Shown piece by piece: positions 6,270 through 10,911 of a DNA stretch of 10,911 bases (the first letter of the stretch is position 1; the number at the start of each line of letters is the position of its first letter). The notes below the pieces were generated by a model. The model worked only from the letters and a program-made list of their open reading frames with translations. It had not been told where the DNA came from and did not search any database. The stretch lies in the IMG/VR virus record IMGVR_UViG_2541047120_000012, one strand, 5' to 3'. The position numbers and the translations under genes were made by a program. The DNA comes from a virus (lineage: Duplodnaviria > Heunggongvirae > Uroviricota > Caudoviricetes).

Positions 6270-9092
6270 ATGACGGCAGAGTACATCAGGGACTGGCAAC
6301 AACCGCGCCACGCAGTGGGGCGTGAAGGAACGGGGATCCCCGCTCCTGAATCCGCGCTTTCCTCCTGGCTGGATGCCTACCGGGTAGAGAACGAGCGCCG
6401 CCAAGAAATGGCTGATGCGGCGTTCTCCGCAACGCCGCTGGGCAACCTGATTAATAAAAGCCTGGACGCACAGGAAAAACAGGACAAAACCATCACACTG
6501 GCAGGAGACGCCAGAAAACAGGCACGCGGTGCGGTGGATGAAGCCATGGCCTCGCTGCGCCTGCTGCCGTCCTATCTGCGCGATCCGCTTATTCGCCACC
6601 TCTCCTTCCTGCGCAAAAAACAGGAAGCCGATCGTCAGAAAGGCAAAAAGAGCTGGCAGGCTGAACGCTACGCGCGCGGAAACCTGCGCAAAATATTCGA
6701 ACGTCTGGAGCGCACCGATCACCGCTGGCTGACACAGGGTTATCGCTCCCTTGCCGGACGCGAACGCCTGGACGATTTGCTTTACCTGCCGCAGCTCAAC
6801 AAACACCAGATACAGACGCTGGCCACCATGACGGCGGCGATGTTCAGCAGCACCTTCGAAAAACTCTGCGATGGCTTTGGCGCGACCGATGGCGAACTGA
6901 CCATGGATGTAACGCTGAAGGCGTATCAGATGCTGGCCCGCATGGCGTTACACCTGCACGCCATGCCTCCACATTATGACGCACTGACAACAGACAAAGA
7001 CCGGAGGAACGAACCGGACACGGAGCTGCTGCCGGGCGCAATCCTTCGCCTGACCTGTGCGGAATGGTGGAAACGCAAACTGTGGCTGTTACGTTGCGAG
7101 TGGAGAGAAGAACAACTCCGCGCCGCCTGTCTGGTTTCCAGAAAAACATCGCCCTATCTGAGCCAGGACGCGTTAAGCGAGTTTCGCGCACAGCGCGAGA
7201 AAACACGCGATTTCCTGAAAAGTTTCATGCTGGAAAACGAAGACGGGTTCACGATTGATCTCGAGACAGTGTATTACGCGGGAGTAAGTAACCCGGTTCA
7301 CCGTAAGGCAGAAATGATGGCCACCATGAAGGGGCTGGAACTTCTGGCCGAAGCCCGTGGCGACAAAGCGGTGTTTCTGACTGTCACCTGCCCGTCAAAA
7401 TACCACGCTACAACAGAGAACGGTCATCCGAATCCCAAATGGAACGGGGCCACCATGCGCGACTCCAGCGATTACCTGGTTAACACGTTTTTTGCGGCGG
7501 TCCGCAAGAAACTGAACCGCGACGGCCTGCGCTGGTATGGCATCCGCACGGTGGAGCCTCACCATGACGGCACCGTGCACTGGCATATGATGGTCTTTGC
7601 TCATCCGGAAGAAATCGACACCATTGTGTCCCACACCCGCGATATTGCCATTCAGGAAGATCGTCACGAGCTGGGCGATGATATTACTCCGCGCTTTAAG
7701 GCGGAGTATGTCGACGGCTCAAAAGGCACGCCAACCAGCTACATCGCCACCTACATCGGAAAAAACCTGGACAGCCGCGCCGTGGATGGCATCGACCCGA
7801 AAACAGGCAAACCACGCGTTGACCACGAAACCGGAAAATCAATGACCGAGAGCGTGGAACGCGCCATTGGCTGGGCGCGCCTTCACCGGGTCCGCCAGTT
7901 CCAGTTCTTTGGCATCCCCTCCCGTCAGGTGTGGCGTGAACTGCGTCGCCTTGCCAGCCAGATGGCACGCAACCCGGAAGGCCCGCAACGGCTGAAGGAT
8001 GACGCAATGGATGCGGTTCTTGCTGCCGCTGATGCCGGATGTTTTACCACCTACATTGAGAAACAGGGAGGCGTACTTGTTCCACGCAAGGACTACCTGA
8101 TTCGCACCGCCTACGACCTCGCAGATGAGCTGAACGATTACGGCGAACAGAGCGTACAGATTTACGGGATCTGGTCACCACTCATCGGGGAATCCTCCCG
8201 TGTGTGCACGCACCCGGATAACTGGAAGCTGGTAAGACGTAAACCGGGAGTAGAAGACAGCGCCCGCGAAAATGGTTTTGACCTTCAGGGCGGCCCTGCC
8301 GCCCCTTGGACTCGTGGCAATAACTGTCCCCGTGTACAGGAAACGGACAACAACGGGACAGAACAGCCGGAAGAACGGCCAGCACCGTGGCCGCAGCTTC
8401 CTGACGGCGTTGACGTGAACGAATGGATGCGCTCACTGAAACGGCACGAACGCCGGGCGCTGATGCGTTCGCTTCGTGACAAACAGGCAAAAAACAGCAG
8501 TGATGAAATGCAGAGCTGGACACAGAGCCGCAAACAGCAGCGGCCTTTGCCTGATAACCACGAATTACTCGCTAAAGAATGGCGGGAGTCTGCTGAATCT
8601 CTCGGCCTGCATATCGGTGAACAACAGATGCAGCACCTGTTACGGGGCGGCAGTCTGTACGTTGACGGCAGCATCATTGCACCGCAGGGATTTGAAATTG
8701 TACGCAAACCGGATACCCGCCCGGACAGCCGAATCACGCAGCTCTGGCAGCGCCTGAGCCGTAATCATGGCGTAAGCAGCACGGAGATCCGCCATAACCC
8801 GGTCGCCAGCTATCTGGCACAGCTGGGGGCATCAGACCCTGAAGCCGCCGCACGCCTGGCATCCACACTTCAGCAGGACCAGAACACCATGAAAACACCC
8901 GTTACCGTGCTTTCTGACATGCTGCGCGCCATCCGCGACGCAGAGCACGCACAGAGAATCAGTGAAACCACTGAACGCGCCAGCCGCAAAGCAGACCTGC
9001 TGCGGGGTGGCCTGACCAGTGGAAACAAAAAACAGACAGAAACGGGACTCACAAATCCCGTAAATGAGCAAAAAACGCGCCGCGATATATGA
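6270..9092 (+). CDS. Phage P2 GpA-like rolling-circle replication initiation endonuclease (HUH superfamily), 940 aa
   Basis: HUH motif VHWHMMVF (His437/His439, nt 7578-7586) and two-tyrosine active site SYIATYIGK (Tyr491/Tyr495/Lys498, nt 7740-7763), matching the phiX174 A / P2 A YxxxYxxK arrangement. Gene order repressor, cox, small genes, A is that of P2/186. Confidence 0.8.
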   Translation: MTAEYIRDWQQPRHAVGREGTGIPAPESALSSWLDAYRVENERRQEMADAAFSATPLGNLINKSLDAQEKQDKTITLAGDARKQARGAVDEAMASLRLLPSYLRDPLIRHLSFLRKKQEADRQKGKKSWQAERYARGNLRKIFERLERTDHRWLTQGYRSLAGRERLDDLLYLPQLNKHQIQTLATMTAAMFSSTFEKLCDGFGATDGELTMDVTLKAYQMLARMALHLHAMPPHYDALTTDKDRRNEPDTELLPGAILRLTCAEWWKRKLWLLRCEWREEQLRAACLVSRKTSPYLSQDALSEFRAQREKTRDFLKSFMLENEDGFTIDLETVYYAGVSNPVHRKAEMMATMKGLELLAEARGDKAVFLTVTCPSKYHATTENGHPNPKWNGATMRDSSDYLVNTFFAAVRKKLNRDGLRWYGIRTVEPHHDGTVHWHMMVFAHPEEIDTIVSHTRDIAIQEDRHELGDDITPRFKAEYVDGSKGTPTSYIATYIGKNLDSRAVDGIDPKTGKPRVDHETGKSMTESVERAIGWARLHRVRQFQFFGIPSRQVWRELRRLASQMARNPEGPQRLKDDAMDAVLAAADAGCFTTYIEKQGGVLVPRKDYLIRTAYDLADELNDYGEQSVQIYGIWSPLIGESSRVCTHPDNWKLVRRKPGVEDSARENGFDLQGGPAAPWTRGNNCPRVQETDNNGTEQPEERPAPWPQLPDGVDVNEWMRSLKRHERRALMRSLRDKQAKNSSDEMQSWTQSRKQQRPLPDNHELLAKEWRESAESLGLHIGEQQMQHLLRGGSLYVDGSIIAPQGFEIVRKPDTRPDSRITQLWQRLSRNHGVSSTEIRHNPVASYLAQLGASDPEAAARLASTLQQDQNTMKTPVTVLSDMLRAIRDAEHAQRISETTERASRKADLLRGGLTSGNKKQTETGLTNPVNEQKTRRDI

Positions 9093-9140
9093 AGCGCGCA
9101 CAAAACAGGCAAAAGCGGGATTTAAAAATCCTGTAACCGA
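9031..9140. repeat. Two 37-bp direct repeats (9031-9067 and 9104-9140), each with an internal palindrome (CGGGA...TCCCG; GGATTT-AA-AAATCC); candidate parC-like centromere/operator
   Basis: Aligned by eye: AACAG(A/G)CA(G/A)AA(A/G)CGGGA-N5-AAATCC(C/T)GTAA. The first repeat is inside the 3' end of the GpA gene, the second in the 76-bp gap before parM. Confidence 0.4.
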
Positions 9141-9168
9141 TTAATTAATCAACATAAGGAAAAGCGAC

Positions 9169-10128
9169 ATGAAAATTTGTATCGACGACGGCTCCACCAA
9201 CATCAAGCTGGCATGGACTGAGAACGGCGAACGCCGCAACGCCATCAGCCCGAACAGCTTCAAGTCGGAATGGTCTGCGCCATTCGGTGGCACGCAGCCC
9301 GCGAACTACATGCTTGATGGCGTGCGCTATGGTTTTGATCCGGTCAGCGATCGCTTTGTCCAGACGACCGACACGCAATACCAGTACAGCGATGTGAATG
9401 TAATTGCCATTCATCACGCGCTGGTCAAATCAGGCATCACACCACAGGAAGTGGATGTGGTTGTCACCCTGCCACTGAGCGAGTATTTCGATACAAACGC
9501 ACAGCCGGACATGGCCAACATCAACCGCAAAAAAGCGAACGTCATGCGCCCGGTGGAGTACCAGAACGGCGAAGCATTCACTATCCGTAACGTACGGGTT
9601 ATGCCTGAATCCATTCCTGCTGGCTTTAAGGCACTGGCTGACATGAGTCCGTTTGAATCCCTGCTGATTGTGGATTTGGGCGGAACCACGCTGGATGTGG
9701 CAAAGGTTCAGGGGCAACTGGCAGGTATCAGCCAGGTGTTTTGCGATCCACACGTAGGCGTTTCTCTGATGGCCGATGCCGTACTGTCGGTGATGGCCAC
9801 TAACGGTATGCGCACCAGTCACCACATCGCCAATACCATTATCGAACATCGCCATGATGAAGCCTGGCTGCGCCAGCACATCCACAATGACGCGCATTAC
9901 GCCAGCCTGATGGCGGTTATTCGTGAAAAGGAAGAAACACTGAAACAACGCGTGATCCGCGCGCTGGCGGTTTTTTCGGGTTACGGGCGGGTGATGGTTG
10001 TCGGTGGCGGGGCGGAGATTGTGGCAACCGCTATCCGCGAAGCCTGCGGAGTTAATGCGACTTTCATCGCGGACGGGGTGCCACAGTTTGCTCTGGTTAA
10101 TGGGTTGTACGCAATGAACAAGGAGTAA
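9169..10128 (+). CDS. parM: Actin-like plasmid segregation ATPase ParM (StbA family), 319 aa
   Basis: N-terminus [35 protein letters not shown] closely parallels plasmid R1 ParM ([21 protein letters not shown]...ISPNSFKREW), as does [15 protein letters not shown]; later glycine-rich motifs (DLGGTT, VVGGGA). Confidence 0.85.
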   Translation: [319 protein letters not shown]

Positions 10129-10132
10129 ACCA

Positions 10133-10447
10133 ATGACGACACCAACCAGACGGATAAGTTTCTATCTGAAGCCCGCCGCCGTCAAGAGTGAACAGGAGGC
10201 GTGCAATTACCTCGATAGCCTGCCAGCCTCCGAACGCAGCCGCGCGCAACGCGCGGCCTTTCTGGCTGGGCTAGCACTCATAAAGCGCAACCCAGCATTT
10301 GCCTACTGGATGGCCGAATGGCCAGAGGACAACCTCCCCTTCAATACCGTTAGCATCAAGGAAACATACCAGGCTAATCAGCCTAGCGGAGTTGAATGCA
10401 ATTTTTATAAAATAAAAAAGAATATTCAGACCTTATTCCCAGAATAA
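10133..10447 (+). CDS. parR: ParR-like (StbB) centromere-binding adaptor, 104 aa
   Basis: RRISFYLKP...YLDSLPASERSRAQRAAFLAGLALIKRNP parallels R1 ParR (RRTIAFKLNP...LDSIPQGERSRLNRAALTAGLALYRQDP) as recalled. Immediately downstream of parM with RBS AAGGAG. Confidence 0.75.
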   Translation: MTTPTRRISFYLKPAAVKSEQEACNYLDSLPASERSRAQRAAFLAGLALIKRNPAFAYWMAEWPEDNLPFNTVSIKETYQANQPSGVECNFYKIKKNIQTLFPE

Positions 10448-10468
10448 TCTGATAATTGTATGTGAACT

Positions 10469-10911
<443 letters not shown>

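Follow-up and report, generated by a model that had tools for sequence, protein, structure and literature searches.

ParMRC is the textbook plasmid partition system, and its centromeres have been described as arrays of direct repeats. In R1-type systems parM is immediately preceded by the centromere, parC, and in every characterised type II system operator and centromere are the same DNA (PMC5016525). Here we describe a relative of the R1 system in an integrating P2-like phage, carried on a 10,911-nucleotide stretch of DNA (IMG/VR record IMGVR_UViG_2541047120_000012, Caudoviricetes; "the window" refers to this whole stretch). The window corresponds to the early region of a P88-like prophage (genus Xuanwuvirus, Peduoviridae, P2-like), is 96–98% identical to 14 phage records, and carries gpA, parM and parR in that order. 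Two palindrome-containing repeats flank the gpA stop codon, and sequence comparison makes it likely that they form the cis site of this P88-like ParM/ParR cassette, a parC-like centromere and probably also an operator.

The order of cis site, parM and parR is shared with R1/NR1 (Dam & Gerdes 1994, as cited in PMC5016525). Both sites are bipartite, with halves an integral number of helical turns apart (94 bp or ∼9 turns in R1, 73 bp or ∼7 turns in the window), and the Shine-Dalgarno context of R1 parM (CATAAGGA) is similar to that in the window. Their internal design differs: R1 parC consists of 2 × 5 tandem, A/C-rich, 11-bp direct iterons (lag-11 autocorrelation z = 4.9) with the promoter between the two iteron clusters, whereas the window has two 20-bp palindromes and no evident promoter of this kind. 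The ParR β-strand residues expected to face DNA also differ (RRTIAFKLNP in R1, TRRISFYLKP in the window), as does the host, a plasmid in one case and an integrating phage in the other.

A first-pass annotation of the window had proposed an architecture different from the R1 iterons, and this proves correct. Autocorrelation gave no 10- or 11-bp iteron signal in the window (z = −1.3 at lag 10 and 0.7 at lag 11) or in the P88, Plesiomonas and Hafnia regions, and the repeats are two long dyad units. Hidden R1-like 11-bp iterons in the A-rich flanks were considered and rejected for the same lack of 10/11-bp periodicity. Two local resemblances to R1 were noted separately. The half-site of the phage palindromes, CAAATCCC, is similar to the core of the R1 iterons, CAAAACCC, and the spacer between the Hafnia sites (L132, 3873–3935; GGAAACCCAAAAACGAACAATAAACGAAC..., reading AAACCCAAAAAC as R1 does) resembles the A/C-rich R1 array (L128, 665–727; CAAAACCCAAAAACAACCC...). 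These may be traces of a common ancestry of palindromic and iteron centromeres, a resemblance without statistical support in the autocorrelation.

The best solved-structure match to the window ParR is ParR/StbB of pB171 par1 (PDB 2JD3; E = 0.012 over residues 6–58, the ribbon-helix-helix domain). pB171 ParR is reported to need no more than two 10-bp repeats ahead of parM (PMC9426499), so a low number of sites has precedent, although the pB171 repeats are direct and those in the window are inverted, 20 bp long and 73 bp apart. Small site numbers and, in some cases, inverted sites have precedents; for a purely palindromic two-site parC serving an R1-family ParR, our literature search found none. 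The ribbon-helix-helix repressors Arc, Mnt and CopG act on ∼20-bp dyad sites as a dimer of dimers, each β-ribbon reading one half-site, and are pure repressors without a motor-coupling tail.

At the DNA level, the closest plasmid-borne parM is that of pOXA-48 (IncL/M; ∼67% identical), whose ParR belongs to the same Pfam family as that of the window. Positions 2360–2472 of the pOXA-48-type loci L002 and L003 hold 10-bp direct GTATTTTTCT iterons (lag-10 z = 4.7) in place of palindromes. They fall into two groups in the manner of R1 parC, 73 bp apart as are the phage sites, around a promoter-like TTTACA-N16-TAATAAT, and the pOXA-48 ParR β-strand, NRKCSFYIYP, is unlike that of the window. We found no experimental characterisation of the region upstream of pOXA-48 parMR.

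The best functional analogy for a prophage ParMRC is offered by srpMRC of the SXT/R391 integrative and conjugative elements (ICEs), a ParM-type partition system that sits on a normally integrated element and stabilises its transient excised circle (PMC4489591). SrpR has no detectable homology to ParR, whereas the window ParR is a PF10784 protein, and the host (an ICE), the repeat sequence and the repeat geometry all differ. In prophage CGP3 of Corynebacterium glutamicum, AlpAC and alpS likewise combine a prophage actin-like filament, a DNA-binding adaptor and specific DNA sites, and AlpAC has been linked to the transport and replication of phage DNA once the prophage is induced (PMC5539076). 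The actin-like protein and the adaptor are of other families, and the host is Gram-positive.

An R1-family gene pair and two palindromic sites

The first-pass calls of GpA and parM were correct, with strong Pfam matches for both (Table 1). The window ParM matches the R1 ParM structure 1MWK with E = 7e-93 and is 47% identical to NR1/R1 ParM over 318 aa. Its partner ParR, which starts 5 nt past the parM stop, is ∼40% identical to NR1 StbB over residues 1–63, the N-terminal domain. It begins with the β-strand TRRISFYLKP and ends in the tail KKNIQTLFPE, part of a C-terminal motif, (K/R)(K/N)N-x3-LFP(E/D), that can be followed from P88-like ParR through pOXA-48 and aligns with KKNAMKLIN of R1. On these alignments, the two window proteins are a true R1-family pair.

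A repeat search of the window returned a single family of two copies, which are 30/38 identical (79%) and lie 73 bp apart from start to start. This is the top 38-nt direct repeat at lags of 38–150 in the entire 10.9-kb window, against a best of 26 identical positions in 300 shuffles. Each copy contains a 20-bp palindrome with the consensus ACGGGATT-N4-AATCCCGT, which matches the window at 9042–9061 (one mismatch) and 9115–9134 (two mismatches) and nowhere else. The chance expectation is 0.03, and none of 200 shuffles gave two hits. The gpA stop codon (TGA, 9090–9092) falls between the copies, so that copy 1 is part of the gpA coding sequence and copy 2 occupies part of the 76 nt separating that gene from the parM ATG (9169).

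Perfect 8-bp arms are found in most relatives (ACGGGATTCACAAATCCCGT at site 1 and ACGGGATTTCAGAATCCCGT at site 2), and the window, which carries the O157:H7 allele, is slightly degenerate. In a complete 34.4-kb P88-like genome, the palindrome motif occurs at these two places only. The first-pass description of two palindrome-containing direct repeats, 73 bp apart and spanning the GpA stop, is confirmed by the repeat search and the shuffles, and its length and extent (37 bp, 9031–9140) were right to within a few bases of the measured 38 nt and 9026–9136. The repeat unit itself needed redefining: the repeats are real, but the conserved functional unit appears to be the 20-bp palindrome with its GGG...CCC core and not the whole 37/38-bp repeat.

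The position of the sites is nearly constant among relatives. In 81 of 86 P88-like loci the palindromes begin at −127 and −54 relative to the parM ATG, and the same placement is seen in all loci found through ParM or overall DNA similarity, independently of the motif. Searching IMG/VR with the exact motif gave 120 loci, almost all P88-like and by design selected for the motif, and divergence within the P88-like clade is too low (∼97% identity everywhere) to single out sites by column conservation. For both reasons, we relied on the motif-independent loci and on distant lineages. Five IMG/VR motif hits without gpA or parM (L046, L057, L117, L121, and L124) were set aside; they are single copies, and some chance hits are estimated for a 16-base pattern in so large a collection.

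Distant ParM homologues lie directly after gpA in P2-like prophages of Hafnia and Plesiomonas (62% identity) and of Serratia and Enterobacter (54–58%). The Plesiomonas locus (L134) has GGG-N10-CCC dyads 72 bp apart at −131/−59 and a ParR strand reading TRRISFYLNP; the Hafnia locus (L132) has such dyads 73 bp apart at −128/−55 and the strand TRRVSFYLKP. In both, the strand is essentially that of P88 and the dyad pair has been kept while the flanks diverged, and shuffles of the 200-bp regions yield such a pair at a frequency of at most 5e-5.

The Serratia/Enterobacter clade, with the ParR β-strand NRKISFYLKP, has a different arrangement upstream of parM, an inverted repeat of 20 nt (TGGGAACAATATAGAAAAAT / ATTTTTCTGTTTCGTTCCCA) whose arms are separated by 28 nt. 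This is a candidate for a third parC layout in the same phage family. At individual loci (L135 3880–3940, L139 2883–2950), we observed inverted repeats of 14–20 nt with arms 26–28 nt apart, together with a TTTAAACGGC palindrome near −45.

P88-like ParR is strongly mosaic, with two N-terminal types, a hypervariable linker and overall identity down to ∼50%, where ParM is at least 94% identical. Its mosaicism may reflect diversifying selection or an incompatibility-type effect. Two segments are nonetheless invariant across the P88-like ParR alleles, the β-strand PTRRISFYLKP, the DNA-reading element of ribbon-helix-helix proteins, and the C-terminal NIxxLFPE tail. Their constancy is what would be expected if neither the DNA target nor the ParM partner had changed.

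Linkage of the repeats to the parMR cassette

Two IMG/VR loci with other genes upstream locate the left edge of the conserved block. In L052, the product of the upstream gpA is of P2 type, 773 aa long and just 31% identical to the window GpA, and an extra open reading frame (ORF) follows the gene. In L072, a 145-aa ORF with CxxC...CxxC zinc-finger-like motifs (394–831) stands between gpA and the par cassette; we note that its last codons come from repeat 1. At both loci, homology to the window sets in with the opening bases of repeat 1 (∼9027) and spans the two repeats, parM and parR. Repeat 1 is therefore the left edge of the mobile parC-parM-parR cassette, and cassette DNA supplies the last ∼22 codons of the window gpA. 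Judged from these homology boundaries, the repeats belong to the parMR cassette and not to gpA.

The reading frames of the upstream ORF agree with this assignment. It crosses repeat 1 in all three frames (frame 2 in 64 unique sequences, frame 0 in ∼9, and frame 1 in 3), and its stop point varies among relatives, sometimes falling only past repeat 2. The repeat-1 region is conserved as DNA while the encoded peptide is not, which points to conservation beyond coding constraint. The first-pass annotation had named conservation of the repeats beyond coding constraint as a test of its reading, and in the relatives they are conserved whatever the reading frame.

A separate observation concerns the AAACAAAAAAC run just before repeat 1 (9023–9032), whose A-run length differs by ±1–2 nt among relatives. 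Each change shifts the gpA frame, giving at least five different GpA C-termini, some of which extend through repeat 2. This variation could be real slippage or assembly error.

Candidate functions of the repeats

The parC-like centromere or ParR operator put forward in the first-pass annotation is supported from several sides. The genes immediately downstream are a ParM/ParR pair in R1 order; the repeats accompany these genes rather than gpA; and their conservation is both independent of reading frame and deep, the paired GGG...CCC cores and the 72–73-bp spacing persisting where ParM is only 62% identical. The constant reading strand of ParR matches a constant site sequence, the motif occurs nowhere else in a complete P88-like genome, the 73 bp correspond to ∼7 helical turns, and iterons are absent.

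A mechanism can be outlined on this basis. ParR, as a ribbon-helix-helix dimer, would probably bind each palindrome (core GGGA-N8-TCCC) as a dimer of dimers, as at other ribbon-helix-helix operators. Sites 73 bp (∼7 turns) apart would lie on the same face of the DNA, and ParR at both could pair them, or form a DNA loop, giving a compact partition complex. The C-terminal tails of ParR (KKNIQxLFPE) would then capture the ends of ParM filaments, and the filaments would push sister phage circles, excised or replicating, away from each other. With site 2 located 20–54 bp upstream of the parM start region, ParR binding would probably also regulate parMR expression.

A cis site upstream of parM is expected; what is unusual is its geometry, its overlap with the 3′ end of a replication gene and its wide spread in integrated E. 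coli prophages. Roughly one complete E. coli genome in four carries the phage, major pathogen lineages among them, and its candidate centromere is reduced to two palindromes. Binding of ParR to them would widen the range of known ParR-DNA recognition geometries, showing that an R1-family ParR can read inverted repeats, and would provide a minimal, easily engineered centromere of ∼110 bp.

More tentatively, and with somewhat less than even confidence, we propose that P88-like phages use a previously undescribed type II centromere, with two dyad ParR sites seven turns apart in the 3′ end of a replication-initiator gene, and that ParMRC segregates the phage circle. If true, this would imply a plasmid-like carrier state for these phages or an ordered segregation of genomes during induction. 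Should ParR bind the palindromes, the reason for an integrating phage to keep a segregation machine could be tested directly; candidates are an episomal carrier state, segregation of the excised circle as in SXT/R391, and the organisation of replicating genomes after induction.

Several observations weigh against a centromere. Characterised ParR proteins have all been reported to bind direct repeats (PMC9426499), and the repeats here are inverted. Two sites may be too few to support a ParM-capturing ring like that of R1. R1 parC contains the par promoter; here a sigma-70 scan at a threshold of 9/12 found nothing within the repeats, between them or at 9140–9160. In the window itself, site 2 is a degenerate allele, its two mismatches including a CCC>CCT change in the core. 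The need for partition is not obvious either, since 1442 of the 1444 places at which the cassette occurs in complete E. coli genomes are chromosomal. The terminator-like minus strand discussed below belongs on the same side. Palindrome variants within E. coli, finally, do not co-vary with ParR allele type, and both N-terminal types carry all common variants; with an invariant β-strand, this last result is neutral and uninformative.

The alternative that survives best, though we consider it unlikely, is that ParR or another regulator binds the sites only as an operator for parMR or for the end of the early operon, with no centromere role; the cassette would then be domesticated or decaying in an integrating phage. 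In favour of this, the parM ribosome-binding region is closely preceded by site 2, which the only −35/−10 candidate, a weak TTTAAA-17-ATTAAT (8/12, the best near the repeats), overlaps; two sites and a nearly always chromosomal cassette would also suit a pure operator. Set against this, ParM and ParR, together with the presumed ParM-binding tail motif, are intact, with at least 94% conservation in over 1300 E. coli genomes, and are retained in remote P2-like lineages, which argues for selection on the whole machine. The identity of operator and centromere in type II systems (PMC5016525) also speaks against an operator alone.

A ATTAATCAA box upstream of the parM Shine-Dalgarno sequence is conserved in the window, P88, Plesiomonas and Hafnia and could conceivably act as a promoter −10 region. 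Transcription of parMR may come largely from the early operon by read-through, which would place it after derepression. By eye, no Ogr-type late-promoter dyad (TGT-N12-ACA) is present.

We give a low probability to the repeats being tandem minus-strand intrinsic terminators or RNA hairpins that block antisense or convergent transcription into gpA or end a cis-antisense RNA over the parM start. The minus strand of E. coli-type copies does have the form of a terminator, with an 8-bp stem, a 4-nt loop and a T-rich tract; a scan flagged 9061–9042, and the hairpin of copy 1 has a folding energy of −10.2 kcal/mol (z = −3.1). Copy 2 of the window, however, folds no better than its shuffles (z = +0.7), and the Plesiomonas and Hafnia sites keep GGG...CCC while having no significant hairpin (z = 1.6, 0.0, −0.9, and −1.6) and no T-runs. 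Substitutions are not compensatory, the promoter scan found no minus-strand promoter-like site downstream in parM, a search of 8800–9400 gave no Rfam match, and there is no minus-strand gene at this place that would need termination.

It is highly improbable that the repeats are part of a replication origin or accessory or regulatory sites for GpA. The first-pass annotation had named an ori-adjacent or replication-regulatory site as its alternative, a reading that the P2 ori, located inside gene A, could favour given that repeat 1 is inside gpA. The P2 nick site, however, lies 427 nt before the A stop codon, and its homologue in the window is at 8290–8327, ∼700 bp upstream of the repeats. This segment, GCGGCCCTGCCGCCCCTTGGACTCGTGGCAATAACTGT, shares 30 of 38 bases with the P2 ori nick region, GCGGCATCGCCGCGCCTCGGAGTCCTGTCAATAACTGT, where the GpA proteins are 30% identical, and is probably the origin of P88-like phages. 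The palindrome is unlike the P2 nick site GCGCCTC/GGAGTCCTGTCAATAAC, and the repeats are unchanged behind a 31%-identical gpA and behind ORFs other than gpA, so that they are independent of gpA type and the earlier alternative is not supported.

A chance or historical duplication without function is equally hard to credit: conservation within the E. coli clade is not discriminating at ∼97% identity throughout, but the shuffle tests, the fixed position and spacing across lineages with diverged flanks, and the independence from reading frame all speak against it.

Distribution and neighbouring features

The cassette was found in 1304 of 5426 complete E. coli genomes (∼24%), including O157:H7, ST131 and UTI89, and the window has perfect (100%) matches in several O157:H7 chromosomes. 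A ParM scan of species-representative genomes returned just three loci, all at least 97% identical, and added no diversity. P88 has been flagged as a possible phage-plasmid from gene content alone (PMC7969092), and our literature search found no description of a P88 centromere. One 34.4-kb circular "plasmid" record, NZ_CP148288.1 (= L137), is an entire P88-like genome including the integrase, and may represent either an episome or the assembly of an induced circle.

Table 1. Features of the gpA-parM-parR region, in window coordinates
Feature	Position	Strand	Sequence	Remarks
gpA, replication endonuclease	6270–9092	+		Phage_GPA, PF05840 (E = 2e-131); last ∼22 codons are cassette DNA (repeat 1 + spacer)
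Direct repeat copy 1	9026–9063 (38 nt)	.	CAAAAAACAGACAGAAACGGGACTCACAAATCCCGTAA	A-rich left flank + palindrome 1; within last 22 codons of gpA
Palindrome 1	9042–9061	.	ACGGGACTCACAAATCCCGT	Candidate ParR site 1; −127 from parM ATG
Inter-site spacer	9064–9098	.		Contains gpA stop codon and GC-rich/ATATAT element
Direct repeat copy 2	9099–9136 (38 nt)	.	CACAAAACAGGCAAAAGCGGGATTTAAAAATCCTGTAA	In gpA-parM gap
Palindrome 2	9115–9134	.	GCGGGATTTAAAAATCCTGT	Candidate ParR site 2; −54 from parM ATG
Box and ribosome-binding region	9140–9160	+	ATTAATTAATCAACATAAGGA	ATTAATCAA box (possible −10 region), then parM Shine-Dalgarno AAGGA
parM, actin-like partition ATPase, 319 aa	9169–10128	+		StbA_N, PF06406 (E = 1.8e-82); ParM C-terminal domain, PF21523 (E = 3.5e-69)
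parR, ribbon-helix-helix centromere-binding adaptor, 104 aa	10133–10447	+		PF10784 (E = 7.7e-29)

Away from the repeats, DNA similarity to P88 breaks near position 10278, within parR. Insertion sequence (IS) transposase fragments (rve integrase core, two frames) occupy the minus strand at 10467–10911, starting 20 nt after the parR stop, so the region downstream of parR is IS-interrupted in the O157:H7-type prophage. At the other end of the window, the minus strand at 383–2450 carries an immunity/integration region unlike that of P88, with ORFs for an integrase N-terminal-domain protein (204 aa), a DUF2511 protein, a 215-aa protein without a Pfam match, and a 133-aa helix-turn-helix repressor-like protein.

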